Source: Candidatus Dojkabacteria bacterium
GTDB taxonomy: Bacteria; Patescibacteriota; Dojkabacteria; GCA-002793355
DNA length: 64,000 nt
Direction of reading: 5' to 3'
Assembly (NCBI GenBank): GCA_030583685.1
Contig: CP129470.1
Coordinates: 340,345-404,344 of the forward strand
The translations under genes were made by a program, and so were the position numbers. Below the pieces are notes generated by a model, which saw nothing but the letters and a program-made list of their open reading frames with translations, searched no databases and was not told the DNA's origin. Of the stretch, positions 15,618-64,000 are shown piece by piece; the first letter of the stretch is position 1, and each line of letters begins with the position of its first letter.

Positions 15618-16001
15618 TTACTTAACAGTGACTGTTGCGCCAGCTTCTTTCAGCTTGGCTGCAATTTCTTCTGCCTCTGCCTTTGCAACACCTTCCTTAA
15701 CGGATTTTGGTGCGCTTTCAACAAAGTCTTTTGCTTCTGTTAATCCAAGACCGGTAAGATCTTTCACGACCTTAATTACTCCGATTTTGTTTGACCCTGC
15801 GTTTTCGAGAACAACGTCAAAAGTGGATTTCTCCTCTTCTGGTGCTGCCGCTGCTGCGGGAGCTGCGACTGCAACTGCTGGTGCTGCTGCACTGACGCCA
15901 AATTTCTCTTCCATTGCCTTCACAAGGTCGGCAAGTTCGAGAACGCTCATCTCAGAAACGAGGTCGAGAACTTCCTGTTGTTTTTTGTTGAGTTCTGCCA
16001 T
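15618..16001 (-). CDS. rplL: 50S ribosomal protein L7/L12
   Basis: '[36 protein letters not shown]', an Ala-rich hinge, and C-terminal '[56 protein letters not shown]'. Confidence 0.95.
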
Positions 16002-16039
16002 GTTTCTCTTAGTAATATTATGTTTCTAAAAAAACTGAA

Positions 16040-16609
16040 TTACTCAGCCTTCTTATTCTGTAAATCAGATACTGCGTACACAAATGCGCGAGGAACTCCC
16101 TGCATCACATTGAGTAAGCCAGTTAATGGTGCTGCCATTGTGCCGACAAGTTGGGCAAGAATCGTTTGTTTGTCGGGAAGTTTAGACAGGCGAGCTACAT
16201 CTTGGTCGTTTAATACTGAACCGCTCACATATCCGAATTTGTAACTAAACGGGACATATTTTGCGACAGTGTCATCATCAGCACCGGTTAACGACAATTG
16301 TGCCTTTGCGTCTTTTACTGCATCGTCCAGTTTCTTGACAGCGGTAACAATATCATTTCCGCCTTCGATAACAGCAAGTTGTCCAACAAAGTTCTGTGCT
16401 GCCAGCTGAGAATCTTTTTCTGCTGCTTTTGCAAAAACAGTGTTTTTAATAACAAAAAGCTTTCCGTCAACTTCAGAAAGAAGTTTACGTAATGTTGTAA
16501 TTGATCGTGCAGGAACTTTATTTGTCTCGATGACAATAAAATTCGATTTGGTGACAACATCCTGATATGCGGAGAAAAGCTCTGCTTTCTGTGCTTTATT
16601 CTTTGGCAT
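16040..16609 (-). CDS. rplJ: 50S ribosomal protein L10
   Basis: 'MPKNKAQKAELFSAYQDVVTKSNFIVIETNKVPARSITTLRKLLSE..' matches the L10 family pattern. The start is taken at the internal Met (MPKNK). Confidence 0.9.
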   Translation of the reverse strand: MPKNKAQKAELFSAYQDVVTKSNFIVIETNKVPARSITTLRKLLSEVDGKLFVIKNTVFAKAAEKDSQLAAQNFVGQLAVIEGGNDIVTAVKKLDDAVKDAKAQLSLTGADDDTVAKYVPFSYKFGYVSGSVLNDQDVARLSKLPDKQTILAQLVGTMAAPLTGLLNVMQGVPRAFVYAVSDLQNKKAE

Positions 16610-16798
16610 TATAATCAAAACAAAATTACCTGAGAACAAAGAAAAAGGAAAAACTGAAAGTTTGACCTCGGCAGGGTATTAAAGCTCTTGTGCAAGCTAC
16701 CTGCTGTCTTTGATCTGAGGTATTATAGCACAACCGGAGCAAAGATTAAAGCGTTGAAACGATAGTGCTCATTACCTCAGCCGATTAAAGCTTTAATA

Positions 16799-38679: not shown

Positions 38680-38795
38680 GCTTGGCGACGACCTATTTTC
38701 CCAGGAGAAAAATCCAAGTATCTTCGGCGCTGGGGTGTTTCACTTCCGAGTTCGGAAAGGGATCGGGTGGGTCCACTCCGCTCTTGTCACCAAGC
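38680..38795 (-). rRNA. rrf: 5S ribosomal RNA (116 nt), unlinked from the 16S-23S unit
   Basis: Reverse complement GCTTGGTGACAAGAGCGGAGTGGACCCACCCGATCCCTTTCCGAACTCGGAAGTGAAACACCCCAGCGCCGAAGATACTTGGATTTTTCTCCTGGGAAAATAGGTCGTCGCCAAGC. Terminal helix GCTTGGTGAC/GTCGCCAAGC. Loop-C/helix-III block 'CCGAACTCGGAAGTGAAAC' and loop-E region 'AGCGCCGAAGATA' align with the E. coli 5S positions. Confidence 0.8.
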
Positions 38796-43208: not shown

Positions 43209-43397
43209 AAACCACCGAGCTAGTCGGTAAACGAATTCACAAACGTGAATTTTGGATAACTAAAAAGAATCATTCGCTTTACTATTCGTAAAGTATGAAT
43301 TCCTTAGTATTAATCATTAAGAATGGAAACTTAATGCTCAGCCCAAAAAGACTTTGCACAAGTACATTAATAATTGAATAGGTATGTGACCAAACAA

Positions 43398-46544
<3,147 letters not shown>

Positions 46545-46909
46545 TAATTCAATTGTTAATGAACTATTGACTTTCGTCAGTCAATTCGTAAAAGAATTGA
46601 GGAATTTTCTCAAGAGAAAACTCCAGTATTCCTTCACTCTCTGCGTTTACGAGCAATCGTAAGCAGATTTTATTCGAACCCCTTTAGTGTGTCAACATCA
46701 ATTTAGGTTCGAAAAAATATCTCCTTCTGAGTGCAGAAGTTCACGCGCGAGCGTGGGATGCCTCTGCTTCGAGGTATTTTATCAAATTTCCGAGGTGTGT
46801 GCAATGCTTTTTGGCTCCGTTATATTGGTTGCCCGCATTATTTGTTGAATGTAGCGTCTTGTGCAGTGTAGTCCCCATTCTTTCGATCTCTGAACCCTGT
46901 TACAGATTC

Positions 46910-46982
46910 TGGACCTGAGGGGATTCGAACCCCTGACAACCCGCATGCAAAGCGGGTGCTCTACCAACTGAGCTACAGGCCC
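46910..46982 (-). tRNA. tRNA-Ala (anticodon TGC)
   Basis: GGGCCTG-TA-GCTC-AGTTGGTA-GAGC-A-CCCGC-TTTGCAT-GCGGG-TTGTC-AGGGG-TTCGAAT-CCCCT-CAGGTCC-A. The G3:U70 alanine identity pair is present. No CCA is encoded. Confidence 0.9.
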
Positions 46983-46995
46983 GAGTCCCAAAGAA

Positions 46996-47067
46996 TGGGC
47001 ATGCTTGGGGTCGAACCAAGGACCACTGCATTATCAGTACAGTGCTCTACCACTGAGCTACATGCCC
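46996..47067 (-). tRNA. tRNA-Ile (anticodon GAT)
   Basis: GGGCATG-TA-GCTC-AGTGGTA-GAGC-A-CTGTA-CTGATAA-TGCAG-TGGTC-CTTGG-TTCGACC-CCAAG-CATGCCC-A. Lies in the 16S-23S spacer. Confidence 0.9.
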
Positions 47068-47111
47068 CTTAACAATCCTGGTGTGGCGAGAAAACCGCTC
47101 ATCTTCTCCGA

Positions 47112-48655
<1,544 letters not shown>

Positions 48656-49149: not shown

Positions 49150-52100
49150 TTACTCGCTTACATTGACCACATACCACCCAACACTCACACCTTCACTTTG
49201 AGGAGCAGCCAACCGAAGGACAAAACCTCCCTCAAAGGGTTCAACTGCAACTACAACTGCCTTGTTAGGTGTTACTACAACAATAGATTCTTCGGTGACC
49301 AACAGTGACTCAACGGTAAACTCGGTTTCCCCCGCGTCAATGATTACACGTCCAGCTTGCTGGTCAGAGACAATAAGATTATTTACCTTGACCCCCTCAA
49401 CAGAGGCCTCAAGAGCAGTTTCCCCATCAACCGTAATCGCAAAACGATCACTTCCTTCAAGCGTAATCGTTACTGCACCTCCAATACCCTTAATTGTTGG
49501 TGTCGAAATAACAGAAGCAAGTACAGTACCAGACGTTGTCATATTTCCTTCATCATCTACAAAGAAGAGATCATTAACCGCAAGTGTGCGGGTTCGAAGC
49601 ACATTAATTTCTGCGGTTGTCGCTGTTACGTTTGGAACAATAATTCCATGAGTCGATTGTATCGTTGTATCAGTAACCTGATTCCACCCCGCACTTACCG
49701 TTCCAGCAGTTGCAATAGCGGTTTCTGCAGCACCATTCTTAACAAAGATAAGCACCTTCTTCACTTTCTTCCCTCCTACGGTATCAGTTACTGTGGACCA
49801 ATCTATCGCTTCTTGGGCTACAGCAACAACACCAGAACCATCCTTTTGCGCATATCCAGGCAAAGTTGAAGAAATACTCAGTAAGTCACCAACAACAACG
49901 TTGCCACCCGATCCCTCTTCTATCCACGCATATGAAGGACCGAATGTTGCAACAAGATATGGATTCCCTGTTTCATCGTACGGTGTTCTCTGAGCTTCAG
50001 GACCTGTGGCAACACCCAGGAAAGTATTTTTGTTCGCCTGTGCTGCTGCCGTTAAGGCATGAATTACTCTATTCCTTTCATCTACACCTAGTTGCGTTGC
50101 ACCTGAGTATGAGACCAACAGGCCATCTTCAATTTCTGCCTCAGAACCTCCCGCCATATACATCGTCTCAGTGAAACGCACAGGATCATCAAAAATCTCA
50201 ATAATAGGATTCTCCATTTCTTCAAGCACACTTTCAGGTAGTTCGGCGTCTGCTGGTGGGTCATCCTGCCAAATCTCTATTGAGTCTACACGCAACTGTT
50301 TAAGCACTGCTTCATTGGTAACAATTGAGATTTCGAATTCATGGACTACTGATGTTGGAGGCAAATTTGTTGAATGATCAGCAACAAGACGACCATCAAT
50401 AAAGAATCGAGCACTTGTTGCAGTCGTCTCAACTCGCAATATATTCATTGGCAACCCAGTCGCAGGAGTCACTCCCGTATTTGTGGTTGTTGCATTACTG
50501 GCATCAGTTCTTGATACGGCTTGCCATGCGCCACCGTTTGTAGAAAGGAAGTAGGCACCCGATGTTGGAACAGCACCTGTTGAAACGGTACGCTGCATAA
50601 ACCCAACATAGACTACTGAAGTTGCCGCACTCGGCAAGTTTACCTCTGTTTCAAACACTGGGTTATACGCCGTTGAAATTTGATTCACATTGTTGAAATC
50701 AATAAGACAAGCGTTTCCTGATGTTTCCCCCGTTTGCAATTGCACGACACCATTAACAGCTCCGCTGACGAACGATGCCGTACATGCACTATTGATTCCC
50801 AAGCGTAGTCCTTCCCACCAGTTTGCAGTATTTGCAGTAACGTTTGCTCGTGAGCCAATAAAATCTGTAAAGAAATAATGCCATGACTGGTTTATTCTTC
50901 CATCAACAGATAGTGTATCTAGTGGTGGCTTCGCTGCTGATGTTCCAATGCTGACATTTGAAGACTCATTAAAGGTTGTACTTGAATAGCTTCCGGTCAC
51001 CGTAATTCCCGTGTCATCAAAGGTTAAAGGTTGCGTTGCTTCTACATATCCTATGAAGCCGGTTGTGTTTGGTGAGGTTGCTGCTGTTGTTCTGAAAATT
51101 CGATACCCCACTGCTCCTGGAACGGCTGTCCAGGTTATCGTATTGTAGTTTGCTCCTGTAAGAGTTGCAGGAGCACTCGTCCTTGTTCCTTCGGCAGAAA
51201 GAATTGTTTCATTCCCATGTGCATTAACCGCCGAAACTCGATATCTCCAGGTTGCGGCACCTGAACTGGTTCCTCCGACACTCGGTGCTGCCGGTGTCTG
51301 CAAGCCCATAAAAGAAGCCCCACCATAAAAGGCAGAACTTCCTGTTACCGCAAGCGTATTTGTGTACACCTCGACCGCTGTATCATTTCCGTTATCAGAA
51401 AATGCGACGTCAACTGTTAACGAGGTATCAGAAGCAATACTTACGACAGTTCGAATTTCTCCTGAAACAACAATTCTGTCGCCAACACTAACTTCAGCAA
51501 GAAAGCGCGTCCCAACTCCTGTTACTGCAGTCGACGCAATTGGATCAATCGACCCCGTAAGGGTGCGAATGGAAGCACCATATACCTCTAACGTTGCTCT
51601 TGGTTCCGCTATACCCACACCTACGCGACCATTCGAGAGGGTATCACCAGTTCCATCTAGTCCTCTTCCATAAATCATATTTCCAATATTGAGCGTATTC
51701 GACTCCGTCAAGGAAACTGCATTAATGTCTGTTCCAATCACAATATTTCGAGACCCGGTTGTGATATTGTCTCCTGCGCGATATCCGAGCAGGACATTTC
51801 CTGAACCGGTCGACACATCATACCCCGCCGCGAACCCAACTGCGACATTATTGTTACCGTCTAAGTCGTTCGCAGGGTCAAGACTATATAACGCATTCAT
51901 TCCCAATGCAGTATTCTGCAAACCGTAGCGATTACTGAGTAACGATTGAACACCGAGTGCTGTATTGTTATAGCCGGTTTCATTCCCGGATAGAGCACTT
52001 GATCCAACCGCCGTATTGTAAAATCCATCCACATTACCATCCAAGGCAAAACTCCCCAGAGCAGTATTATTATACCCAGTTTCATTTGTATAGAGAGCAG

Positions 52101-55100
52101 AAATACCGACGGCAGTGTTTTCTGAGCCAGTGGTGTTTGCCATTAGTACTTGTGCACCAACTGCTGTATTAAATTCCCCAGTGTTCGCTATCAAGGTATA
52201 ATGACCAACACCTGTATTTAAGGTGCCAGAAACGTTGGATTGTAAGGAATTTGCACCTATGGCAACATTACCACTACCGTCAACATTTTCATATAACGCC
52301 CACCCACCGATTGCAATATTTTCCCAATTATCATTCTTGTACAACGCATTATATCCAAGCGCGATATTATAGTTCCCCCCCCCACTCACTGCCATTGCGC
52401 TGTTTCCGATTGCAATATTATTATCAGCGTCATTTGACTCTGCCAATGCATAATTACCAATTCCAATATTCCCACTGCTCGTCTGTGAATTAGCGAGGAC
52501 ATAGTTTCCAATTGCAATATTTTGCGATGCTTGTATGGCATTGCTTAAATTTTCAATACCAATAACAACATTTCTGTAAACATCAGCACTGCTGTTATTC
52601 GACAATGAACTATACCCAATGAATACATTCTTCGAGAAATCGTCTCCAAGTCCAATCAATGAATCTCCCTTAAGGTCATAGAGAGCGAAGGCAGGCTGTG
52701 CATTCAAAACCTCAACTACAGAAACATCATCTATCGTAAACGTTCCTCCCGTAATGCCATTCCATAATCCAAAGGTCACGGTGTGTGAACCACTGAGTTT
52801 GGCCTTAAAATATTTCACAACCGTTCCATTCCCTGTCACCGGGACTTCAGCACCATCATTCCCACCATTTGACCACCAGTACATGCCATCATTTGCAATA
52901 CCCGAAATAGTAAACTCAATCTTATATATTTTTCCAATCTCAGTCACAATTGAAGTACTTATTTCTGGCCAATCTTCATGCAAACCTTCATCATACGCAA
53001 TGGTTACGGCATTACTACCATAAGTAGCAGAGTCTGCGAGTGTCCATCCGGTAGCACTTCCGGTAAAAGTGCCGTTCGTCACCAATTCTGAGCCATATGC
53101 AGATACTGTACTATCAATGACGAGCTTTGCGTCTCCAGAAGATGCTCCAAAACTTACCCTGCCACTTGTCTTATCAAGAAACAGCAAATCATTCAAAAAC
53201 GAAATGCTTCCATTGCTCGTGCTATCAGTATCAAATCTAAGAACATTATTCTCAGCATCATAGGAAATCATTCCCTGGTCTGAGGAGGAAGCACCGATAT
53301 AAATGGTGTCACCACCAAGATAGAGATCTCGGAAGCGATACGCATCAGAACCAAGGTCATAGGTATTGTTTGCACTTGGCCCAATATGTCCTGCGACTTC
53401 GAGTTTGAAATTACTCGCGGTTGTCCCGATTCCCACATTTCCGCCAGCGGTAATCGACATCTTTTCTGTATTATTGGTTATGAATGACAATCCGTAATTA
53501 TCAGTAGTCCCGAGAACTCCGGTTTCACCAAAGGCATTGCCTCCAAGTTCATAACAATCAGTACATTCTCCCCCTCCTCCGCCACCTACAACGCCAGTGC
53601 CTATCGCATTTAATCGAACATTTTGCGTAATTCCTGAGTAGTTATACAAACGAACATTGTTTGCATCCAACTGTTCGATTCTGAATCCCGATTGCCCAAG
53701 CCAACTAACTCCATATTGCGTCACAAAGGTAGAGGTTTTTGCGTTGGTTCGGGCAAATTCAAAGCGCATCTTCAATTCATTTCCAGAAGCAGAGAAAATA
53801 CACGAATACTCTGTTTCAGGCGGATACACCTCTGCATTTGTTGAAACAACAGTACATGTCGCAAAGGTACTGCCATCGTCAACCGAAGCTTTTACGGTAA
53901 TGGTATTACCAGAATCATCGGCATCGGTTACCCCCTTTACCCAAACGACTGCTGACGCAATATTTTTTGGCAATTCATACATCTTAGATTCATAGACTGC
54001 GCTATTTAATGTTGTTTGATTGTCTGGACCGATAATTTTTGCTCCATCAGTTAATGACGCGACCAACTCAAGATGGTCACCCACCAAAACAGAAGACGTA
54101 TTCTGATTTACCAATACTGGACCACCTGTAGGTACATTTGCAGACGAACCATACGTCTTGATATTAGTGTCCGCATTGAGTTGTATTTTACTGACTCTCC
54201 CATTGCTCGTGTGATTTGTACCAACATACATATATTGACGTTGCTTGTCGATTGCAACATCTCCAATAACATTTGATGTTCCGCCAAGTTGTTGGTTTGT
54301 ATCTGCACCTCCGCCACCAAAGATTGTTCCATGACTTTGCAATGCACGAGATCCTGTTTCATACATTTTGCGAACATCAGCTCCACTAATCTCTGTTGCC
54401 GTCACAAATATTTCATCGAGATACCCATTGAAATACTGGACTGCAGCATTCGCATGGCGACCGATATAAAAACTTTGTGTTACATCCATGATTCCACTCG
54501 AATATGCGACGGAATCTTCTAAAACACCATTAATGTACAGGTTTAGACGAGTTCCTGTATAAACGGTTACTACATGATACCAGGTATCAAGTGCAATCGT
54601 TGTTTTGCTTGTTACAGCGTTACCTGAGGAGTTGTTTAAGGCCTGTGACAAAATTTGATTACTACTATTAAGCGTTGTTATATACCCTCCATTATTCGAA
54701 GCATTAACATTAAAACTTTTCGACATCACCACACGACTGGTTCCCGCTCCCCCTTTCGCCTGAATCCAACCACCCCATGCCCATGCGCCAGAACCGGTAT
54801 AGTCAAGTTTTGAGGTACCACCACAGGAGGCATCAGTACAATAGTAGGCTTGATTGGTTCCGTTGTAACTACCTGCCTCACCTCTGACACCAGATACTGC
54901 CGTTACGGGACCACTTTCATTTGTTAATGTGTTTCCTCTCCCTGATAAATCTCCGTTCATCTGCCACATACCACGAATATCACCAAACATTTCTTCCGAA
55001 ATATTACTTGTTGTATAGTATTTTGCCGATCCAAACTTTTCTGTCCCCCCATCGTTTGCTGTAGCGATTGAATTTCCACTGTTCTCCTGAATAACCGTAA

Positions 55101-58100
55101 GCCCACTTGCTGTTCCAACATAGAGTGTATTTGAACCGGGATCGACTAATGAGCTTCCTTCTTCCACATGAAGAGCATTGATTTGACTTACCCCTGTCGC
55201 ATTGCCGAGTATCGTGGGGCCATTTAAAGACCAACCTGAAGTTGATGCACCAACCCAATAAACTCCAGTTCTATACAAAGCGAGGCTTGACTCAGTCATT
55301 AATCCATGAACATTCCTATAAACCTCGACCCGTGAAATATTGGCCGTTGAGTTACTCATTGCTGAATACAGGGAGTTGTTGTCTGTAAGCTCAACCTTAC
55401 TGTGCCAAATTGTGTCGCCTATGTGCGAGCCAAGGAAAACATGAGCACTTCTTGAATCAGTTTCATTAACTACAGTTACTCCTCCATCAACTCCGCTCGC
55501 TCCTGTGGCTACCGCAATGAATTGTTTTGGAGCAACAACTCCAGTTGCAGTCCACGTATAACAATAAAAGGTAGTCGTACTGAAATTTCCGTCTGCTGCA
55601 TCACTCGCAGATAATCGTTGAGTGAAACTATTATTCGTTATTGATGATGCAATGCTCGTTATTCTTTGGTTCGCTCCCGTACATTCCGCAAGCGTTCTTG
55701 GTGCAGTTGTTGTACGCGAAGCTACCGATACCGTAGAAACTGTAGGAATATTGACAAAAGTATAAGGCAGGAGAACCTGCTCACTTATTGTCGTTGCCGC
55801 AGCACCTTGAATATACCCCCATCCACTTATAGTCACCTCTTTTGTTGGATGATTTGGAATAACTGCGACACTCACATCCATTACCGCATCATGAGCCAAT
55901 GACATTTCAGAGGATAAACTCGAAAAACCAAGTCCTGCGTTTCTTCGGGAAATACTTCCCCCGTATTTTGTATACCCGGCGCTGTGATGATTATAGCCAT
56001 CATCCATTGAAAAACGGATTCTCGCGAAGTACCCTAGTACTTCTGTTGGTTCATTAATACCGACATAGACATTCCCGTTTAATGCTTCAATAGTACGCGC
56101 TTTGAGCAGGGTTGTTACAGGAAGCATGTTAATCGCAGTAGTTGTACCAGATATCCTCATCCATAATTTTTGGGTATCTGCATCAATAATATCGACATGA
56201 TCTCGGGTTGAGATAATATAACTCCGGTCAGGAAACTCCTGTTTTGAACCTCGAATTGAAGAGGTTGGTTCAGTGAACCATGAGGCTATCTGGAACACAT
56301 CTCCCGTCATATACTGTGCCCCTGTGAAAATAACACTCACGCCTGTTGACCCAAGTACCTGCGAGACACCGGGAGTAATGGTAACTCCGGACGCTGAATT
56401 CCCATTGTTATCTGTCCAGTTGAACGTAAAAGGACTCGTAATTGTAATAAGAATTGGTCGTGGGTTACTTGAATATCTCCCGATTGCTTTGATCAGTGAA
56501 CCATTATATGTTGTGCTGAGATTCTTCCCTGCTGAAGACAATAATACAACTCCATTGTTCCAATTCGGATCAATACCCAATTCAACCTGCACCTCAGGGG
56601 AACTATCTTCAGAAAGCTCGTAATAATATGAATCCGTAACCACATTAGTTCCCAAATAATTGTTTCCTGCGGTATCGGTAGTTGAAGAGTTGAGTGTTTG
56701 ATTACCCCATAACCCAATTCTTCCTGTTTGTTCACGATAACCACCAAGTGATTTATGAGGATCGAGCAACTGCATAGAGAATACACTTGTTGTTACGGTA
56801 GAGTCGGTCTTTGTTTTGTCTTCAAAGGTATCGAAAAAGATTCCCTGGTCCAAAAGGTTACTGGTATATGCGCCCGTTTCCGCAATTTGCCGATACATTT
56901 GTGCCGCCTGATAGTAACTTTCTCTCGTAGCATGTCTACCTTCCCACGCAATTGCTGGTGTATATGTTGTATCTAACTGTTTCCAGACTGAATCTGAGAA
57001 AATCCAGCCCATTGCCAATATGTCGTTTGTATCAAAACCATGCTCAATATTGAGGTACGAGCCATTCGCAAGAGATGCATTTGACGCTGTAAGTATTGAA
57101 TTCCCCGTTAAATCCTGCCAACTGAGCGTGCCTGCTGTATTAACCAATACACCATCTGCGGACGCTGTTGGCAAGGTATAGGTAATATTCCCAGACTGGT
57201 CGCCCCCTTGGAATACTGTGTAAAATTCTGGTGAACCTCCCCCTTCAAGAATTCCCAAGGTTCCAGCAACCGAAAGTGTTTGTCCAGGCGTTGCCGTACC
57301 AATACCTACCCGACTTTCTGATTTATCGAGATACAAAACATTAGTAAAGAATGCGATATCTCCATTGCTTGTGCTATCTGTTGAAAAATTGAAAATGTTT
57401 GCAGTCGTATTGTACGAAATAATCCCCTGATCTGTTGCAGAAGTACCGATATAGATACTTTCTCCGCCAAGATAGAGATCTCGGAAACGATATGAATCTG
57501 AGCCAAGGTCATAAGTATCATTTGCACTTGGTAACAGACTTGAGGTCATACTAATGACCCCTGATGTCCCAATTGAAAGCCGTTCAATATTGTTTGTGAT
57601 GAACGAAAGCGCATAATTATCTGTTGTTCCAAGAACTCCTGGTTCGCCAAAGGCATTCCCATCCTGTTCAAAACACGCGGCACAACTCGTTACTGTTTCC
57701 CAACTTAATACCCCTCCTGTATTCGTTAATACTCCATTTACCGAAGTCGTTGGAAGGGTATAGGTGATATTGCCAGACTGATCACCTCCCTGAAAAATGG
57801 TAAAGAACTCAGGTGACGTTCCCCCTTCAAGAATTCCAAAATTCCCCGCTATGGAAAGCGTTTGCTGAGGAGCATACACCCCGATTCCGACATTTCCCCC
57901 AAAATAGTTTGTTCCCCCTTCGGAATACAACGCAAAGGAATCTCCCGATGCTGCATCTTCATAATTGCTAATATATAAACCATACAGGTAATCCACATTC
58001 ATCGTTCCATATGAGCCATGTCCAATCATAATTCCATATACTTCACTGCTGCCAGTCGGTTGTGCACCATAGTAATTTGTTTCTACATTCAAACCAATGA

Positions 58101-61100
58101 AGTTTAAACTTTCTTCTGCATCTTGGAACATTTCAACTACCGTTTCCTGACCAGTTAAATGTGCGACTCCAACATTTCCAGCAGAAACAGAGCTCACAAT
58201 TCCGAACCCGTCCACGTAATCCGCATACCCAAGATACAGGGAGAATACTGCAGCATCACCGCTCAAATAATTCGAATATGCTAAGCCATTTCCATATGCC
58301 TCGACATGAGCACGAATACCATTATAGTATCCCTGATCTTCTATATTTTCACGATAAATGTCGACGATCATACCTTGATATTCCTCTTCTATTTTGTCTA
58401 GGCCATATGAGTCAATTCGCAATCCGGTGCCCCATGAGGTATCAGTATTATGAACAACATGCAATTTCGCCTCTGGTACTGCCGTGCCAATTCCGACATT
58501 TGCATAATCGTAACCACCTCCCGCCGAAAAGATTACTTCCCCACTGCTATCCCGCGCAAGAAACGCTCCCGGGAATGTAATTTCTCTGAATGAAACATCA
58601 TCAAGAGTAAACGTGCTGTTTTCAGTAGATGGATTATTTGTACCAAAGTATACACCACCGTTAGTTCCGTCTTCTCTTGCAAAAAATATAACCTCGTAGG
58701 TGCCGTTCGAATCAAAGGAATTGACAAAACTTGTCGAAACAAGTTCCAGATTAACTAGTTCAATTTGAAGTATAGCGTCAACAGTACTCACGCCAGAAAG
58801 CGTAAATTGTAAGCGGTAATACTTCCCTTGCACAATGGTATATCCTTCCTGCCAAAGTTCACTATTCCCTCCGCCATCTGTAGTTGTGAGTATTACATTA
58901 TTACTTCCATAGGTTGTACCACCATTTGTATCCCATCCGGTCAATCCTCCGGTAAAAGTACCGTTTGTAACTAGTTCAGTGCCGATAACCTCAAATGGCT
59001 TGGCTTGTACATCAAGCGTTGCACGTGGAGAAGAAACACCTATTCCGAGTCTTCCTGTCTCAGACAAAATCATTGCAAGGGTATCGTTTGTGATAAATTC
59101 AAGCGCAAAGTTATCCGTTGTTCCAAGAACCCCTACTGCTCCAAACGCATTCCCGTCTTGTTCAAAACAAGCAACACAACCACCTCCTGCAGTTTCCCAA
59201 CTGAGCACCCCACCCGTATTCGTCAATACCCCATTTGCAGAAGCCGTTGGTAAGGTATAGGTAATGGTTGCAGACTGGTCACCCCCCTGAAAAATGGTAA
59301 AATATTCTGGGGAGCTTCCTCCTTCCAAAATCTTGAGGTTCCCAAAGACGCCCAATCCTGAACCGTCAAGCGAAGCCATATGCTTATTTTCACCATTAAC
59401 AAGCGTCGAAAAGAGTAACTGTCCATCCTCCGAACCCGCTGAAGGATCTATTGCTAGCGCACTCATCGCAGCATAATCCGCATACGACGGTGGCGCACTG
59501 TCATTATAATAGTAAATATTTCCATCACCAGGACCATAGTAGCTTCCTGCAAAAACCACGCCCGTGTCCGTATCGATTCCTAAGCTCACAATTTCGTTTG
59601 CAGACGCGTCATACGACAAGGTCCATTCACCTGAGGAGTCACAACCGGTAGAAACAGAACATACATAAATATAGCCTACGTCTCCCGTAGCAGCATACAT
59701 CCTTCCGTGTACAGGATCATACGCAAGTGCATATATCCAATCTGACATATCTGAATACACTAAGTTCCAATCTCCTCCTGCGTCACAATTCGTAGCCGTG
59801 TCACATCGATAAAGATCATTCTCTGTGGCAGCGTACAGCACATCATTATCTGTATCTACACCGATTGACGTTACGTTTGCATTCGGAAGATCGACGGATA
59901 GTGTCCAATCGGTATCTTGATCACAACCGGTCGACGTTTCACAGCGATACACTCCCGCAGAATATTTTGTTCCTGCATAAAGGACACTGTTTGCGGCATC
60001 AAACGCGAAAGAATCAATCCCACTAATTCCTGAAATATCATAAGGGGCAGTCACCGTAAAATCACCTGAGGCATCACATCCTGTCGCGGCAATATCACAT
60101 CTGTGGACATATTTCAGGGTCGCATTATCTGTTCCAATATAGAGCACCGAGTTATTAGTATCCACGACGAGTCGCTGTCCATCATCATCACCAACCGAAT
60201 AAACTGAGGTCCACTCCCCGGGAATATCACAACCAGTTGTCGTATCACAACGAAATATATTTTGCTCTCCTAACGCAAACAACAGTCCACTTGTTGGATC
60301 AAAAACAATACTTCGTATCGAATTATCAGGGTTTGAGGCTTCATACACCTCTGCCCAATCTCCAGAGGAATCACACCCAGAAGACATTGGACAACGAAGG
60401 ATAACCGGGTCCCATGCAGTTGTCGCATACATTACTCCGTTTACGGAATCATACGCAAAAGCCAAGACATCCTCAAAGGGGGTAGCGTACGACGTCTGCC
60501 AATTTGGCGTCGATACATTTTGTGCGCGAAACACATGTGTCCCAAAAATTGTGTTTGTTCCTGGATTCCCAAGGAGCGTCGTTCCAAAAACGACTGGCCC
60601 AACCGTATCTGCCAGGGTCAGTTGATCAGTTGGCGTAGTCGTTCCAATTCCCACATTTCCACTAGAAGTAATGACCATTCGAGCGATACTGTCAGTTAGG
60701 AATGAAAGCCCATACGCGTCTAACGTTCCTAAAACACCAGGAGCTCCAAACTCATTTCCTCCTTGTTTAAAAAAACTGTTATGAGTGAAGGCGTTACCGG
60801 CACCATCAGTCAATGCTTGTGCTCGCAATGCGACGGGAACTGCAGTAATTGGCTTACGTGTGGAAAAAACCTCCTCATATCGATGGGTTGCAGGAGAACA
60901 ATTTGTATCGCTACTATCACCAGTATTGCCATTTGCATCAAAACAAACCTGTAAGTAAAGATCTGCATTATCAAACACAGTTGAACCAAAAGGCGTCACT
61001 GAACCCAATTCAACACTCAAAATTCCGTCCGTTACTGTCAAAGAACGATCCTCTGACCATACCGCCGTTCCTCCAGTACTGACGGTGTATAACAAAAATC

Positions 61101-61281
61101 TAAAATTGTAAGTATCATTGGGAATATTGGTTCCATCTGTGTTCACCAATTTACTTTGAAACGAAATAGTGTCTGTGGTTGCAGCAAAAACGAATTGAGG
61201 AAAGAAGATAGACACAACAAACAAACAGATGAACAGGGGGAGTATCAGTGCGGCCGGGGCTCGCCGACTTGCTTGCTTCAT
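49150..61281 (-). CDS. giant (4043 aa) secreted/signal-anchored surface protein: Cys-pair beta-propeller-like repeats, repeated phage-tail-fibre-like modules, LamG/ConA-like domain, YadA-head/Hep_Hag-like repeat tract
   Basis: Single uninterrupted 12.1-kb ORF. Signal peptide 'ALILPLFICLFVVSIFFPQFVFAATT'. Six 'xYRCDxxTGCDxxGDWTxxY' units. Three 'ILEGG(S/T)SPEFFTIFQGGDQSGNITYTLPT(A/T)S.NGVLTNTGGVLSW' modules. LamG-like '..WYHVVTVYTGTRLNLYINGVL...QYFNGYLDEIFV'. 'N(T/I)A(V/I/L)G..AL..N..G..' 14-mer repeats. Confidence 0.8.
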   Translation of the reverse strand: MKQASRRAPAALILPLFICLFVVSIFFPQFVFAATTDTISFQSKLVNTDGTNIPNDTYNFRFLLYTVSTGGTAVWSEDRSLTVTDGILSVELGSVTPFGSTVFDNADLYLQVCFDANGNTGDSSDTNCSPATHRYEEVFSTRKPITAVPVALRAQALTDGAGNAFTHNSFFKQGGNEFGAPGVLGTLDAYGLSFLTDSIARMVITSSGNVGIGTTTPTDQLTLADTVGPVVFGTTLLGNPGTNTIFGTHVFRAQNVSTPNWQTSYATPFEDVLAFAYDSVNGVMYATTAWDPVILRCPMSSGCDSSGDWAEVYEASNPDNSIRSIVFDPTSGLLFALGEQNIFRCDTTTGCDIPGEWTSVYSVGDDDGQRLVVDTNNSVLYIGTDNATLKYVHRCDIAATGCDASGDFTVTAPYDISGISGIDSFAFDAANSVLYAGTKYSAGVYRCETSTGCDQDTDWTLSVDLPNANVTSIGVDTDNDVLYAATENDLYRCDTATNCDAGGDWNLVYSDMSDWIYALAYDPVHGRMYAATGDVGYIYVCSVSTGCDSSGEWTLSYDASANEIVSLGIDTDTGVVFAGSYYGPGDGNIYYYNDSAPPSYADYAAMSALAIDPSAGSEDGQLLFSTLVNGENKHMASLDGSGLGVFGNLKILEGGSSPEYFTIFQGGDQSATITYTLPTASANGVLTNTGGVLSWETAGGGCVACFEQDGNAFGAVGVLGTTDNFALEFITNDTLAMILSETGRLGIGVSSPRATLDVQAKPFEVIGTELVTNGTFTGGLTGWDTNGGTTYGSNNVILTTTDGGGNSELWQEGYTIVQGKYYRLQFTLSGVSTVDAILQIELVNLELVSTSFVNSFDSNGTYEVIFFAREDGTNGGVYFGTNNPSTENSTFTLDDVSFREITFPGAFLARDSSGEVIFSAGGGYDYANVGIGTAVPEAKLHVVHNTDTSWGTGLRIDSYGLDKIEEEYQGMIVDIYRENIEDQGYYNGIRAHVEAYGNGLAYSNYLSGDAAVFSLYLGYADYVDGFGIVSSVSAGNVGVAHLTGQETVVEMFQDAEESLNFIGLNVETNYYGAQPTGSSEVYGIMIGHGSYGTMNVDYLYGLYISNYEDAASGDSFALYSEGGTNYFGGNVGIGVYAPQQTLSIAGNFGILEGGTSPEFFTIFQGGDQSGNITYTLPTTSVNGVLTNTGGVLSWETVTSCAACFEQDGNAFGEPGVLGTTDNYALSFITNNIERLSIGTSGVISMTSSLLPSANDTYDLGSDSYRFRDLYLGGESIYIGTSATDQGIISYNTTANIFNFSTDSTSNGDIAFFTNVLYLDKSESRVGIGTATPGQTLSVAGTLGILEGGGSPEFYTVFQGGDQSGNITYTLPTASADGVLVNTAGTLSWQDLTGNSILTASNASLANGSYLNIEHGFDTNDILAMGWIFSDSVWKQLDTTYTPAIAWEGRHATRESYYQAAQMYRQIAETGAYTSNLLDQGIFFDTFEDKTKTDSTVTTSVFSMQLLDPHKSLGGYREQTGRIGLWGNQTLNSSTTDTAGNNYLGTNVVTDSYYYELSEDSSPEVQVELGIDPNWNNGVVLLSSAGKNLSTTYNGSLIKAIGRYSSNPRPILITITSPFTFNWTDNNGNSASGVTITPGVSQVLGSTGVSVIFTGAQYMTGDVFQIASWFTEPTSSIRGSKQEFPDRSYIISTRDHVDIIDADTQKLWMRISGTTTAINMLPVTTLLKARTIEALNGNVYVGINEPTEVLGYFARIRFSMDDGYNHHSAGYTKYGGSISRRNAGLGFSSLSSEMSLAHDAVMDVSVAVIPNHPTKEVTISGWGYIQGAAATTISEQVLLPYTFVNIPTVSTVSVASRTTTAPRTLAECTGANQRITSIASSITNNSFTQRLSASDAADGNFSTTTFYCYTWTATGVVAPKQFIAVATGASGVDGGVTVVNETDSRSAHVFLGSHIGDTIWHSKVELTDNNSLYSAMSNSTANISRVEVYRNVHGLMTESSLALYRTGVYWVGASTSGWSLNGPTILGNATGVSQINALHVEEGSSLVDPGSNTLYVGTASGLTVIQENSGNSIATANDGGTEKFGSAKYYTTSNISEEMFGDIRGMWQMNGDLSGRGNTLTNESGPVTAVSGVRGEAGSYNGTNQAYYCTDASCGGTSKLDYTGSGAWAWGGWIQAKGGAGTSRVVMSKSFNVNASNNGGYITTLNSSNQILSQALNNSSGNAVTSKTTIALDTWYHVVTVYTGTRLNLYINGVLEDSVAYSSGIMDVTQSFYIGRHANAAVQYFNGYLDEIFVTATEISGADVRKMYETGSRALQSHGTIFGGGGADTNQQLGGTSNVIGDVAIDKQRQYMYVGTNHTSNGRVSKIQLNADTNIKTYGSSANVPTGGPVLVNQNTSSVLVGDHLELVASLTDGAKIIGPDNQTTLNSAVYESKMYELPKNIASAVVWVKGVTDADDSGNTITVKASVDDGSTFATCTVVSTNAEVYPPETEYSCIFSASGNELKMRFEFARTNAKTSTFVTQYGVSWLGQSGFRIEQLDANNVRLYNYSGITQNVRLNAIGTGVVGGGGGGECTDCYELGGNAFGETGVLGTTDNYGLSFITNNTEKMSITAGGNVGIGTTASNFKLEVAGHIGPSANNTYDLGSDAYRFRDLYLGGDTIYIGASSSDQGMISYDAENNVLRFDTDSTSNGSISFLNDLLFLDKTSGRVSFGASSGDAKLVIDSTVSAYGSELVTNGTFTGSATGWTLADSATYGSNAVTIAYDEGLHEDWPEISTSIVTEIGKIYKIEFTISGIANDGMYWWSNGGNDGAEVPVTGNGTVVKYFKAKLSGSHTVTFGLWNGITGGTFTIDDVSVVEVLNAQPAFALYDLKGDSLIGLGDDFSKNVFIGYSSLSNNSSADVYRNVVIGIENLSNAIQASQNIAIGNYVLANSQTSSGNIGIGNYALAESNDADNNIAIGNSAMAVSGGGNYNIALGYNALYKNDNWENIAIGGWALYENVDGSGNVAIGANSLQSNVSGTLNTGVGHYTLIANTGEFNTAVGAQVLMANTTGSENTAVGISALYTNETGYNNTALGSFALDGNVDGFYNTAVGSSALSGNETGYNNTALGVQSLLSNRYGLQNTALGMNALYSLDPANDLDGNNNVAVGFAAGYDVSTGSGNVLLGYRAGDNITTGSRNIVIGTDINAVSLTESNTLNIGNMIYGRGLDGTGDTLSNGRVGVGIAEPRATLEVYGASIRTLTGSIDPIASTAVTGVGTRFLAEVSVGDRIVVSGEIRTVVSIASDTSLTVDVAFSDNGNDTAVEVYTNTLAVTGSSAFYGGASFMGLQTPAAPSVGGTSSGAATWRYRVSAVNAHGNETILSAEGTRTSAPATLTGANYNTITWTAVPGAVGYRIFRTTAATSPNTTGFIGYVEATQPLTFDDTGITVTGSYSSTTFNESSNVSIGTSAAKPPLDTLSVDGRINQSWHYFFTDFIGSRANVTANTANWWEGLRLGINSACTASFVSGAVNGVVQLQTGETSGNACLIDFNNVNQISTAYNPVFETEVNLPSAATSVVYVGFMQRTVSTGAVPTSGAYFLSTNGGAWQAVSRTDASNATTTNTGVTPATGLPMNILRVETTATSARFFIDGRLVADHSTNLPPTSVVHEFEISIVTNEAVLKQLRVDSIEIWQDDPPADAELPESVLEEMENPIIEIFDDPVRFTETMYMAGGSEAEIEDGLLVSYSGATQLGVDERNRVIHALTAAAQANKNTFLGVATGPEAQRTPYDETGNPYLVATFGPSYAWIEEGSGGNVVVGDLLSISSTLPGYAQKDGSGVVAVAQEAIDWSTVTDTVGGKKVKKVLIFVKNGAAETAIATAGTVSAGWNQVTDTTIQSTHGIIVPNVTATTAEINVLRTRTLAVNDLFFVDDEGNMTTSGTVLASVISTPTIKGIGGAVTITLEGSDRFAITVDGETALEASVEGVKVNNLIVSDQQAGRVIIDAGETEFTVESLLVTEESIVVVTPNKAVVVAVEPFEGGFVLRLAAPQSEGVSVGWYVVNVSE
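51650..52600 (-). repeat. tract of ~20 short (~14-aa) 'NxAxGxxALxxNxxG' repeats (YadA-head/Hep_Hag-like) within the 4043-aa gene (bounds approximate)
   Basis: 'NIAIGNYVLANSQTSSGNIGIGNYALAESNDADNNIAIGNSAMAVSGGGNYNIALGYNALYKNDNWENIAIGGWALYENVDGSGNVAIGANSLQSNVSGTLNTGVGHYTLIANTGEFNTAVGAQVLMANTTGSENTAVGISALYTNETGYNNTALGSFALDGNVDGFYNTAVGSSALSGNETGYNNTALGVQSLLSNRYGLQNTALGMNALYS'. Confidence 0.5.
59600..60500 (-). repeat. six ~45-aa Cys-pair repeats 'VL(Y/F)xxT...(Y/F)RCDxxTGCDxxGDWTxVY' (beta-propeller-like) within the 4043-aa gene (bounds approximate)
   Basis: 'LRCPMSSGCDSSGDWAEVYE', 'IFRCDTTTGCDIPGEWTSVYS', 'VHRCDIAATGCDASGDFTVTAP', 'VYRCETSTGCDQDTDWTLSVD', 'LYRCDTATNCDAGGDWNLVYS', 'IYVCSVSTGCDSSGEWTLSYD'. 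Each is preceded by 'D..N.VLY(A/I)(G/A)T'. Confidence 0.5.
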
Positions 61282-61590: not shown

Positions 61591-62124
61591 CTACGCCAGA
61601 TCAGCGAGAGCATACTGCTTGGTTAAATCACGAAAACTCACGCTAGATAAATCAGATTCTTGGTAACCAAGAAGACTTGCCGTTTCAATCACTTTTTGTG
61701 CAGAGTCTGCTTCTATCTCCAATAGCGGAGGAATGACCGCGTATGCACCAAGATGTTCATCAATTACGAGCGTCGCTCCATTCAGCGCATACGACTCTCT
61801 ATACTTTGAGAAATCATGCGTTACCGCATACCCCAAAGACAGGAAAATTTCATGAGTCGTCGCAAAATCTGAAACAATAACCTCTCTCTCATTTCTTTGC
61901 CGTATTTGAGTATGTGTGCTATCAATGACCTCTTTATACGCAATCCTCGCCTCCTCACCTTCTAATCTCAAACGCAAAGTTCGAAGCTTATTTTCCGCAA
62001 CAGGGAGCTTGAACAAAATGGTTCGATACAGTTTTTTTGAAAGAAATATCCCCCCAGCTCGCAACAACTTCTTTCTTTCAGCAGAAACATCAATATTCAT
62101 GACTTTCGATTCAATTTCTATCAT
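61591..62124 (-). CDS. CYTH-domain protein (triphosphate tunnel metalloenzyme; CyaB-like class IV adenylyl cyclase / inorganic triphosphatase family)
   Basis: N-terminal 'MIEIESK' (the ExExK signature). Internal 'LRLRLEGEEARIAYK'. C-terminal 'RESYALNGATLVIDEHLGAYAVIPPLLEIEADS' matches the family's 'R..Y.l.g..v.lD...gLG.f.EiE' end. Confidence 0.55.
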   Translation of the reverse strand: MIEIESKVMNIDVSAERKKLLRAGGIFLSKKLYRTILFKLPVAENKLRTLRLRLEGEEARIAYKEVIDSTHTQIRQRNEREVIVSDFATTHEIFLSLGYAVTHDFSKYRESYALNGATLVIDEHLGAYAVIPPLLEIEADSAQKVIETASLLGYQESDLSSVSFRDLTKQYALADLA

Positions 62125-62186: not shown

Positions 62187-62885
62187 GTGGAAGTATATTA
62201 CTCTTTTTGGTATAATACGAAGTATAAATTTTATCCACCCGATATGGTACTTATTCCAGATGTCCCTTCCCTTATCCTCAATCTCCCGATAATCATATCT
62301 CTCATTGCGATAACTCGCTATATGATCGGTTTTAAAACATGGAAAAATTACCCGGTTGTCGTCCTTACGCTTGCATTTTACTTGCTCCATCTCACTACTG
62401 AATCACTTCTTGCAACAGCATTATTATGGGTATTCTTCCTTATTTCGGTTATTGGTTCGGCCTTTGGTACTCGATATCTGCTCAGGCACTTTAAAATCAA
62501 TTACTATGCACGAATCGCAACAATGTATCTTGCAGCAATGACCTTTACCCTTTTTCTCATTTCGATTCTTGCCTTAAGCACCATGAAAGAATGGGTACTA
62601 GACCACAATTTTGCCCTTGCTGTATTTCTTATGGGCACAACCATCGACGAACTCGCAACTCTTCACTTTAAAAAGGGCTCTCAAGAGCTCTTGCGACGAG
62701 TAATTACTACTCTTGGGCTTTCTGTCATTATGGGATTACTACTGACGTGGACATGGTGGAATCAGTTACTGGCAACTCATCATGAAATTCTTCTTTTTGT
62801 TCTCGTTATTGACCTTATCGTTGCATTCTGGACTGTGGCTCGATTAACCGAAATCGCTCGATTTGGCTCAATTCTCAAAGACTAA
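62187..62885 (+). CDS. polytopic (about 7-helix) membrane protein, candidate 7TM partner of the downstream ATP-grasp ligase
   Basis: Hydrophobic helices 'LILNLPIIISLIAITRYMIGF', 'VVVLTLAFYLLHL', 'LLATALLWVFFLISVIGSAF', 'IATMYLAAMTFTLFLISILALS', 'FALAVFLMGTTI', 'VITTLGLSVIMGLLLTWTWW', 'ILLFVLVIDLIVAFWTVA'. The stop lies 4 nt before the next ATG. The start is uncertain (Met at 62244 is plausible). Confidence 0.45.
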   Translation: MEVYYSFWYNTKYKFYPPDMVLIPDVPSLILNLPIIISLIAITRYMIGFKTWKNYPVVVLTLAFYLLHLTTESLLATALLWVFFLISVIGSAFGTRYLLRHFKINYYARIATMYLAAMTFTLFLISILALSTMKEWVLDHNFALAVFLMGTTIDELATLHFKKGSQELLRRVITTLGLSVIMGLLLTWTWWNQLLATHHEILLFVLVIDLIVAFWTVARLTEIARFGSILKD

Positions 62886-62889
62886 CACT

Positions 62890-64000
62890 ATGATCGACTT
62901 CCCCCTCACCGAATTCTCCAGAAAAATTCTTGGTATTAACAGCCGTAATTTAACATATATTCGAAAACTGAATCCTCCAAAATACAAGTATATCGCGGAC
63001 GACAAACTTCTCACCAAAAAAATTCTCGAAAGGAACAAAATCAGAACACCTGAGTTATTCAAGATTATTCGCACAAAAGAACAACTCGAATATATTAACT
63101 GGGCAGCACTGCCAAAAAGTTTCGTCATCAAACCAAATCGAGGGACACATGGTTCAGGAATTATTGTCTTCTATGGAAAGAAAAAAGGGAAACTTGCATG
63201 GATTACTCCAAATATGGAGGTTATTGATGTCGGCACAATCAAACAACATATCATGGATATTATTGACGGTAAGTTTTCAATCGATGGACGGCGAGATATA
63301 GCCTTCTTTGAGGAAAGAGTCTCAAATCATGCAATTTTGAAACCATATGCCTACCGAGGAATCCCCGATATCCGCGTTATTGTCTACAACTCCTTCCCCA
63401 TTATGGCAATGTTACGTCTTCCCACTCGAGAATCTCGGGGTACTGCAAACTTACACGCAGGTGGTATCGGAGTCGGTATAGACATTGGTTCAGGAGTGAC
63501 GACAACTGCTATTCACCGCAAAGGTTTTGATCTGATCGGAGATCGCTACAATTTAATTGAAGAAACCATTGACGAGCCAAAACTCACCTTTAAAGGACTA
63601 AAGATTCCCTATTGGGATAAAATTTTAGAACTTGCAATCAAAAGCCAACAAATTTCTAAGCTTGGTTTTGTTGGTGTCGATATTGTGATTGATAAAGAAA
63701 AAGGGCCTATGATCCTTGAATTAAATGCTCGTCCAGGACTCGCTATTCAACTTGCAAATCAAGAAGGAATGCTCGAGCGAATTACCCAAGTGAAACGATT
63801 CAAACAGAAGAAAACAACAGAGAAATATATCGCAATTGCAAAGAATTTATTTGGAGGTGAAATCGAAGAACAAGTCGAGAATTTGACTGGTCGAGAAATC
63901 ATCGGTCTCGTCGAAAGAGCCAGTGTCTCTCCGTCTCATGAAGTTTACGAACAGTTAAAAAGGTCAACAAAGAAGAATATTCCCTTGCCAAAGGAATCAG
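62890..64000 (+). CDS. RimK-related ATP-grasp amide-bond ligase (alpha-L-glutamate-ligase-like family), 3'-truncated at window edge
   Basis: Hand translation is open to the window end. 'ALPKSFVIKPNRGTHGSGIIVF' is the ATP-grasp P-loop-like strand. 'ANLHAGGIGVGIDIGSGV' and 'LGFVGVDIVIDKEKGPMILELNARPGLAIQLAN' are hallmarks of RimK-type ligases. A further ~60 aa of non-ATP-grasp sequence continues past nt 64000. Confidence 0.6.
   Translation, partial: MIDFPLTEFSRKILGINSRNLTYIRKLNPPKYKYIADDKLLTKKILERNKIRTPELFKIIRTKEQLEYINWAALPKSFVIKPNRGTHGSGIIVFYGKKKGKLAWITPNMEVIDVGTIKQHIMDIIDGKFSIDGRRDIAFFEERVSNHAILKPYAYRGIPDIRVIVYNSFPIMAMLRLPTRESRGTANLHAGGIGVGIDIGSGVTTTAIHRKGFDLIGDRYNLIEETIDEPKLTFKGLKIPYWDKILELAIKSQQISKLGFVGVDIVIDKEKGPMILELNARPGLAIQLANQEGMLERITQVKRFKQKKTTEKYIAIAKNLFGGEIEEQVENLTGREIIGLVERASVSPSHEVYEQLKRSTKKNIPLPKES

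Follow-up and report, generated by a model that had tools for sequence, protein, structure and literature searches.

What might a small seven-transmembrane (7TM) protein and a RimK-like ATP-grasp ligase, encoded side by side, be doing for a bacterium of the Patescibacteria? The question arises at the very end of a 64,000-nucleotide stretch (hereafter the window) of Candidatus Dojkabacteria bacterium contig CP129470.1, where two same-strand (+) open reading frames (ORFs) occupy the last 1.8 kb and the second exits the window end after 370 codons. Judged from sequence comparison, these are the first two genes of a chromosomal Patescibacterial operon that is a compact homologue of the proteobacterial rloABC system, and we favor as most likely, with moderate confidence, the view that the encoded system is a membrane-docked writer/eraser for acidic (poly-Glu-like) peptide tails. 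What is new here is a 7TM protein devoid of a transglutaminase-like domain, a ligase–retropepsin fusion, a Patescibacterial host and a multi-ligase cassette. Because dnaA, dnaE, dnaX, an rRNA operon and ribosomal protein genes are all present in the window, the DNA is chromosomal, and a plasmid or phage origin is ruled out. The locus contains, from left to right:

62208-62216, + strand: TGgTATAAT, an extended -10-like element by consensus match only, 28 nt upstream of the ATG at 62244; candidate operon promoter.
62244-62885, + strand: stand-alone 7TM_transglut (PF14402) membrane protein of 213 aa, an RloB-like 7TM module without the transglutaminase-like domain; alternative GTG start at 62187.
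62886-62889, + strand: intergenic spacer of 4 nt, read from the sequence; operon-type coupling.
62890-63825, + strand: ATP-grasp ligase domain (PF14397, TIGR02291) of a fusion protein, residues 1-312, RloC / TIGR02291 clade.
63850-63888, + strand: acidic interdomain linker FGGEIEEQVENLT, residues 321-333, conserved in 34 homologues.
63889-64000, + strand: first part (residues 334-370 of 501) of a RimB/RloA-type retropepsin domain that the window end truncates; identified from protein P0001 on contig L001.

The membrane-protein ORF stops with TAA at 62883-62885 and the ligase starts with ATG at 62890-62892, which bears out the 4-nt separation given in a first-pass annotation made from the sequence alone; in related loci the gap between the two genes is 0-13 nt, or they overlap. 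That annotation had placed the membrane-protein start at GTG 62187, which is probably wrong. ATG 62244 is favored because the gene calls of related contigs use it, because all homologues begin MV(L/F)(I/L)PDVP (MVLIPDVP... here), and because the TGgTATAAT element sits inside the GTG-62187 ORF, upstream of ATG 62244. (A two-hexamer promoter scan left this element unlisted because its -35 hexamer is poor.) An exact-sequence look-up with the 232-aa GTG-start form gave no record; homology searches led to the 213-aa form and the ligase. Relative to contig L001, from a strain with 98.85 % DNA identity, the ligase part shows 7 nucleotide differences and 0 amino-acid changes and the membrane protein 7 nucleotide and 2 amino-acid differences, few enough amino-acid changes to imply that both are real genes under purifying selection. 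The pair is kept in every related locus with enough DNA, which excludes chance.

Homology of the second gene to ATP-grasp enzymes stops near residue 311 (~nt 63822), and its remaining 59 codons in the window encode the acidic linker and the first strand of another domain, in agreement with the earlier observation that the ligase ORF runs past 64000 with non-ATP-grasp sequence. The suggestion that a fused third component lies just outside the window, perhaps the retropepsin-like partner of such ligases, proved correct. P0001, the full 501-aa protein on contig L001, is 100 % identical over the window's 370 residues, and its residues ~334-501 form a RimB-like domain (PF05618, 38.1 bits against a cut-off of 27) that also scores 36 bits with the RloA3 model and matches the PDB sequences 9g58, 9g59 and 2pma. 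The retropepsin signature reads K-I-D376-S-G-A, with the D376-S-G codons 15-23 nt past the window end. This C-terminal extension is thus a RimB/RloA-type retropepsin with an intact DSG, and the predicted third component is fused to the ligase, not encoded as a separate secreted protease with a signal peptide. The maximum 19-residue Kyte-Doolittle hydropathy of the fusion protein is 1.13, so there is neither a transmembrane segment nor a signal peptide; this lack of a hydrophobic segment, together with the ATP requirement, assigns it to the cytoplasm.

The protease domain aligns with that of a Legionella adelaidensis canonical operon on plasmid NZ_LR134414.1 (locus L092) with KxD(T/S)GA in register. 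By spacing from the catalytic Asp, K374, R448 and R471 of the window's lineage are the likely counterparts of RloA K46, R114 and R137, which bind poly-glutamate (PMC12239564). The Legionella gene itself (L092 1981-2439) is RloA-like; its record names it 'RimK/LysX family protein' and places the start downstream of an in-frame segment, MRLVLFFIFSWTFLCGST. Because this segment looks like a signal peptide or lipobox, both name and start are probably mis-annotated.

The linker is well conserved: F321, G322 and G323 are invariant among the 34 homologues and E324, E326 and E330 at least 90 % conserved, and the pattern FGG[ED][IV]E..[IV]E recurs across 87 related loci and in a ligase–retropepsin–MATCAP fusion. 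Its predicted local distance difference test (pLDDT) score is low. This Glu-rich segment, FGGE[IV]EE.[IV]E, directly precedes a protease domain whose relatives cleave acidic sequences, and it could be a pseudo-substrate or an autoprocessing site.

To which ligase clade does the N-terminal part belong? The three RimK-type motifs singled out in the first-pass annotation, SFVIKPNRGTHGSGIIVF, ANLHAGGIGVGIDIGSG and ILELNARPGLAIQLAN, are all present and fall on ATP-grasp residues that are invariant in the same homologues (K81, G85, G88, G90, E141, R143, D160, R162, N187, H189, G191, D264, E277, N279 and R281). The domain matches PF14397 (ATPgrasp_ST) over residues 19-302 with 221.8 bits (cut-off 31.4; E=1.3e-65), and its best NCBIfam match is TIGR02291, 'alpha-L-glutamate ligase-like protein' (266 bits, residues 11-311, a clade-level match). 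It is 42 % identical (E=1e-71) to the RloC-like 'alpha-L-glutamate ligase-like protein' of L092. The RimK models fail: the family model TIGR00768 gives 61.9 bits against a cut-off of 143.4, the equivalog model PRK10446 21.5 against 331, and the Pfam RimK model aligns just to residues 245-285. These scores uphold the proposed placement in the 7TM-linked, RimK-related clade and argue against grouping with genuine RimK. Among solved structures, ArgX/LysX and RimK are nearest in fold to the ATP-grasp part as modelled; each of them extends C-terminal Glu residues of proteins.

The upstream protein belongs to the 7TM family expected of such a partner, scoring 36.2 bits with PF14402 (cut-off 25). An AlphaFold2 model (pLDDT 85.4, predicted template modelling score 0.81) contains seven transmembrane helices, in agreement with hydropathy and with the earlier count of about seven, plus a C-terminal amphipathic helix. 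The fusion to an inactive transglutaminase, described in the first-pass annotation as frequent in the clade, is absent; the protein is the 7TM core alone, with no N-terminal domain whatever. It matches just positions 316-508 of the NCBIfam RloB model NF052267 ('osmotic stress tolerance membrane protein') and is collinear with residues 313-505 of the 508-aa 'inactive transglutaminase family protein' of L092. Lys and Arg are concentrated in loops 1-2, 3-4 and 5-6 and in the C-terminal helix, which by the positive-inside rule suggests an N-out/C-in topology, the orientation needed if an N-terminal domain is extracytoplasmic as in RloB. Conserved polar motifs are GFKTWKNYP, KINYYAR, TIDELATL..FKK..QE..RR, WWN, HHE and RLTE..RF. 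Foldseek found no solved relative in the PDB at E<=0.001 (best E=1.0), nor did a profile search of PDB sequences. When the 7TM alignment was used for a profile search of the whole library, 308 representative clusters were recovered in which stand-alone proteins of ~215-250 aa, a common form, are mixed with RloB-like ones of ~500-540 aa.

How far does this arrangement extend? The annotation's two-gene operon stands as a pair, and the operon is larger. On contig L001 the fusion gene is followed, at spacings of 16, 1 and -23 nt, by three more genes:

L001 2935-5636, just past window position 64000: two RimK-family ligase genes and a PF13302 (RimJ/RimL-type) GNAT gene, in the same tight operon.

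Both ligases are full-length (301 and 343 aa) and score above the TIGR00768 cut-off, at 174 and 149 bits. The GNAT has a long uncharacterized C-terminal extension and measures 372-562 aa in relatives. The same five-gene operon occurs in relatives with 73-81 % ligase identity. A scan of one genome per species found a relative of the module in at least 585 species-level genomes; the labels of the best 80 matches read Dojkabacteria, Moraniibacteriota, Paceibacterota/Parcubacteria or Patescibacteria, the rest being automatic and unreliable. From this we conclude that the module is a common, unstudied feature of Patescibacteria. When purpose-built hidden Markov models were run over 87 related loci, the ligase–retropepsin fusion was found in every one, and a stand-alone 7TM gene (~215-260 aa) lay immediately upstream on the same strand in all 83 loci with upstream DNA (the other 4 have no such DNA). 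The catalytic D[TS]G is kept in 83 of the 87. The cassettes downstream, tallied in the 67 loci with at least 3.5 kb of DNA on that side, vary:

31 of 67 loci: three further ATP-grasp genes and a MATCAP-family carboxypeptidase gene.
3 of 67 loci: three further ATP-grasp genes, with no MATCAP match.
9 of 67 loci: two RimK-family ligases and a GNAT, as in the window's lineage.
10 of 67 loci: none of the queried families downstream.
14 of 67 loci: partial or other combinations.

Variant architectures came from two of the clusters that we inspected (L090 5001-8942, L091 3436-7377 and L095 4001-7145). In one, a PKD-domain plus 7TM protein is followed by a 795-aa triple fusion of ATPgrasp_ST, a degenerate retropepsin ('ARIDTSLG', with the Gly lost) and MATCAP; in another, a stand-alone 7TM protein is followed by an 813-aa ATPgrasp_ST–MATCAP fusion. 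These variants imply a general rule of 7TM core plus RloC-type ligase plus peptidase, often in one polypeptide. As for genomic surroundings, in many Dojkabacteria-type loci the 7TM–ligase pair lies 106-499 nt downstream of rplJ-rplL (encoding L10 and L7/L12), on the same strand; this adjacency, counted in 25 of 62 loci, is seen in L006, among L015-L073, and in L094 and L095, and includes loci with MATCAP-fused ligases. It may reflect inherited synteny or a functional link. In the window the module is 46 kb from rplJ/rplL (15618-16639).

What, then, could the module do? We propose that the soluble fusion protein would dock on the 7TM protein from the cytoplasm, where the loops and C-terminal helix of that protein are conserved and positively charged. 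Its ATP-grasp domain, using ATP, would add alpha-linked amino acids, most likely Glu, singly to a carboxylate acceptor, giving an acidic tail or a free acidic peptide; the fused protease domain, which would have to dimerize to form a retropepsin active site, would cut the tails back, and writer and eraser in one polypeptide would set product length and level. The 7TM protein would present the acceptor or pass the product through the membrane, and in the window's lineage the two downstream RimK-family ligases and the GNAT acetyltransferase probably extend or cap the same product. Both domains of the fusion are predicted to be catalytically competent, given the invariant ATP-grasp residues and the widespread D[TS]G.

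An acidic substrate is favored by the biochemistry of the relatives. The retropepsins RloA1-3, which P. aeruginosa secretes, cut Glu runs of 8 residues or more (Lormand et al. 2025, mBio, PMC12239564). RimB, which likewise cleaves such runs, trims the poly-Glu of RpsF and boosts the synthesis of poly-alpha-Glu by RimK (Little et al. 2025, JBC, PMC11957791). The poly-glutamate-binding residues of RloA have putative correspondents here in K374, R448 and R471. The pairing of a writer with an eraser is favored because it recurs, in the 7TM-linked ATPgrasp_ST–MATCAP fusions, in the cassettes that combine MATCAP with three ligases (31 of 67 loci as listed above, 35 by another count) and in a RimB-RimK hybrid, protease N-terminal, that is proteolytically active (PMC11957791).

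Several points weigh against this proposal. Glutamate specificity is extrapolated from RimK, RimB and RloA, and one of the three correspondents, R471, is not conserved beyond the window's close relatives. The ligase's TIGR02291 score is below that model's equivalog/trusted cut-off of 314, which makes it a member of a sister clade, assigned at clade level, and not an RloC equivalog. In 4 of the 87 loci an Asn or Ser stands in place of the catalytic Asp (NTG/STG). What was seen of the retropepsin domain, the GNAT and both extra ligases comes from the near-identical contig L001 alone and not from the window. With no detectable solved relative of the 7TM fold, 'scaffold' and 'exporter' are indistinguishable. 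Finally, the Pseudomonas protease acts outside the cytoplasm, and a cytoplasmic protease fused to its ligase may follow other principles. The two are simply reconciled if in either case the protease restricts how much RloBC product there is or how long it is, before export here and after export in Pseudomonas. Patescibacteria are generally regarded as having no outer membrane and no periplasm, so a freely secreted protease would not be retained.

Among the loci with an Asp-less retropepsin, at least L006, which encodes P0064, also has a MATCAP-family peptidase gene; P0050 and P0118 are further Asp-less examples.

Three other explanations have to be weighed against the writer/eraser proposal, and the ribosomal neighborhood and the RimK-type motifs recommend the plainest of them, an ordinary RimK/RimB system for glutamylation of ribosomal protein S6 that happens to lie beside an unrelated membrane protein. 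RimK structures are among the best fold matches, the protease is predicted to be cytoplasmic like RimB, RimB-RimK hybrid proteins exist, and the module follows rplJ-rplL in the 25 loci noted above. We nevertheless consider this very improbable: both RimK models fall far short of their cut-offs (21.5 vs 331 and 61.9 vs 143.4 bits), the Pfam RimK model covers only residues 245-285, the domain order is opposite to that of RimBK, the 7TM gene is linked in 83 of 83 loci, and genuine RimK-family paralogues are encoded separately downstream. The obligate membrane partner would fit a role in the cell envelope, in which amino acids would be added to a membrane-bound sugar- or lipid-linked precursor (of peptidoglycan, a teichoic-acid-like polymer or a surface polysaccharide), with the 7TM protein as flippase or scaffold and the protease in an editing role. 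The Pfam name of the ligase family, 'sugar-transfer associated ATP-grasp', points the same way, as do the cell-shape, beta-lactam and hypo-osmotic phenotypes of P. aeruginosa rlo mutants, for which the authors suspected peptidoglycan homeostasis (PMC12239564), the over-production of membrane vesicles by a Shewanella RloB-like mutant, and the murB, or mreB/WecG, genes that adjoin the module in some loci. Across the 87 loci, however, no glycosyltransferase or Mur-type gene is consistently linked, the conserved neighbors being ATP-grasp ligases and peptidases; the family of the fused protease is poly-Glu-specific in vitro, and the nearest ligase folds are those of protein-C-terminus ligases. An envelope role is therefore unlikely in our estimation.

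The third explanation shares most of its chemistry with the writer/eraser proposal, from which it differs solely in having a free rather than a protein-bound acceptor: the module would serve small acidic peptide metabolism, producing an osmolyte or a store of glutamate in the form of short N-acetylated acidic peptides or of free poly-alpha-glutamate, comparable to N-acetylaspartylglutamate (NAAG) or N-acetylglutaminylglutamine amide (NAGGN), with the protease freeing monomers or oligomers and the 7TM protein as sensor or efflux path. A GNAT and RimK-like enzymes together make NAAG in mammals and NAGGN in bacteria, and the operon of the window's lineage combines three RimK-type ligases with a GNAT. 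Moreover, in vitro reactions of RimK with RimB yield free poly-alpha-Glu chains as long as 28 residues (PMC11957791), Rlo is tied to osmotic stress, and glutamate/polyglutamate homeostasis was raised by the authors of that work (PMC12239564). However, the GNAT cassette is found in just 9 of 67 loci and a bare pair in 10, and no transporter-like fold was detected for the 7TM protein; we regard this explanation as quite unlikely. A bolder reading, speculative and in our view also unlikely, treats the 7TM protein, the fusion and the variable set of two to three additional ATP-grasp ligases as one machine, embedded in the membrane, that assembles and exports peptides independently of ribosomes. 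Each type of residue in a defined acidic alpha-peptide polymer or tail would have its own ligase, the fused protease would set chain length before export, and the 7TM protein would let the product through to the surface of the cells, which are ultra-small, wall-bound and host-dependent. If true, this would be a previously unrecognized route to a surface polymer and would name the product class of the Rlo system.

Several candidate acceptors and roles were considered for the membrane-docked writer/eraser and rejected. The 7TM protein's own C-terminus is rejected because 45 of 80 sequences end in K and no acidic end is conserved. L7/L12, to which the rplJ-rplL adjacency drew attention, is not supported, given that its C-termini vary (VELA/VELE/VELQ/VELK) and that the distance in the window is 46 kb. 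The giant neighboring proteins, proposed as substrates in the first-pass annotation, find no support: they adjoin the module in L002/L003 as in the window, whereas L004, L006 and L007 lack this adjacency, and no ORF of the window contains a poly-Glu run, the sole acidic run being EEEDD in the ORF at 774-2951. A role in anti-phage defense was rejected since no operon protein matches PADLOC. Nor is the gene upstream part of the system, being kept in the near-identical strain only and not in other loci; this CYTH / class IV adenylate cyclase (CyaB)-like gene (61591-62124, - strand) is divergent from the operon and scores 47 bits with TIGR00318, below the cut-off of 58.

Other features of the window are recorded here in their own right. 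The giant ORFs, both on the - strand, lie at 49150-61281 (4043 aa) and 23612-34750 (3712 aa); the longer one has an N-terminal signal-peptide-like segment, internally repeated modules and the end ...VVNVSE. A 609-aa Transglut_core protein (PF01841, 67 bits) encoded at 4883-6712 (- strand) adjoins dnaA (6719-8104) and is unlinked to the 7TM gene. In the rRNA operon (43393-48655, - strand) the 23S gene covers 3137 nt where the model has 2925 nt, a difference suggestive of insertions; the operon's spacer holds tRNA-Ile and tRNA-Ala, and the 5S gene (38680-38794, - strand) is displaced by 4.6 kb, with GH18, ABC-transporter and DUF6624 genes between.

How does the module compare with known systems? 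The triad of 7TM/inactive transglutaminase, ATP-grasp and retropepsin was reportedly described by Iyer et al. in 2009. One comparison is with the eukaryotic tubulin code, where ATP-grasp ligases (TTL/TTLL) add residues to acidic protein C-terminal tails and dedicated carboxypeptidases (MATCAP/vasohibin) remove them. Related 7TM-linked loci do encode MATCAP-family peptidases, fused to the ligase or adjoining it. This is a functional analogy only: a tubulin-like target is not known, the peptidase of the window's lineage is a retropepsin and not MATCAP, and the system here is membrane-associated.

RimK-RimB and the RimBK fusions share with the module a cytoplasmic ATP-grasp enzyme of the alpha-L-glutamate-ligase type that is paired or fused with a retropepsin-like protease, which in that system cleaves poly-Glu and regulates the ligase (PMC11957791). 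The ligase clade differs, the window's enzyme belonging with RloC and failing the RimK models; the protease is N-terminal in RimBK and C-terminal in the window's lineage; RimK systems have no obligate 7TM partner; and RimBK occurs mainly in Flavobacteriales and Rhodobacterales (PMC11957791).

The closest counterpart is RloABC. The annotation had described the system as purely predicted, which no longer applies, since rloABC genetics and protease biochemistry were published in 2025; its statement that the physiological substrate has not been identified still stands (PMC12239564). The rloA1-3 triple mutant of P. aeruginosa does not survive in hypo-osmotic medium and is impaired in shape, biofilm and beta-lactam phenotypes, defects that are suppressed by deletion of rloB or rloC (PMC12239564); genetic evidence of this kind comes from P. 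aeruginosa only. Neither this paper nor that on RimB mentions Patescibacteria or a fusion of ligase then protease (PMC12239564, PMC11957791). The system affects antibiotic tolerance, biofilm formation and osmotic survival in that organism.

Both RloABC and the module combine a PF14402 7TM component, a TIGR02291/PF14397-type ATP-grasp ligase and a PF05618 retropepsin in one operon. They differ in several respects. The window's 7TM protein has no extracytoplasmic transglutaminase-like domain; the protease of its lineage is fused to the C-terminus of a ligase predicted to be cytoplasmic, whereas that of P. aeruginosa is separate and secreted; the genes run B'-(C::A) and not A-B-C; the ligase falls short of the trusted cut-off of TIGR02291; and the module usually lies within a cassette with 2-3 more ATP-grasp ligases. 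The hosts differ as well, Patescibacteria here against a reported RloB distribution that is 96 % Proteobacteria (PMC12239564). The Patescibacterial variant thereby provides an independent constraint, having the same three modules with the protease cytoplasmic and tied to the ligase and the 7TM protein reduced to its membrane core. It argues that the essential chemistry, acidic-peptide ligation and trimming, can occur at the inner membrane face, and that the 7TM core and not the transglutaminase-like domain is the indispensable partner. With one 501-aa writer/eraser polypeptide and one 213-aa membrane protein, it also lends itself to reconstitution far more readily than the proteobacterial system.

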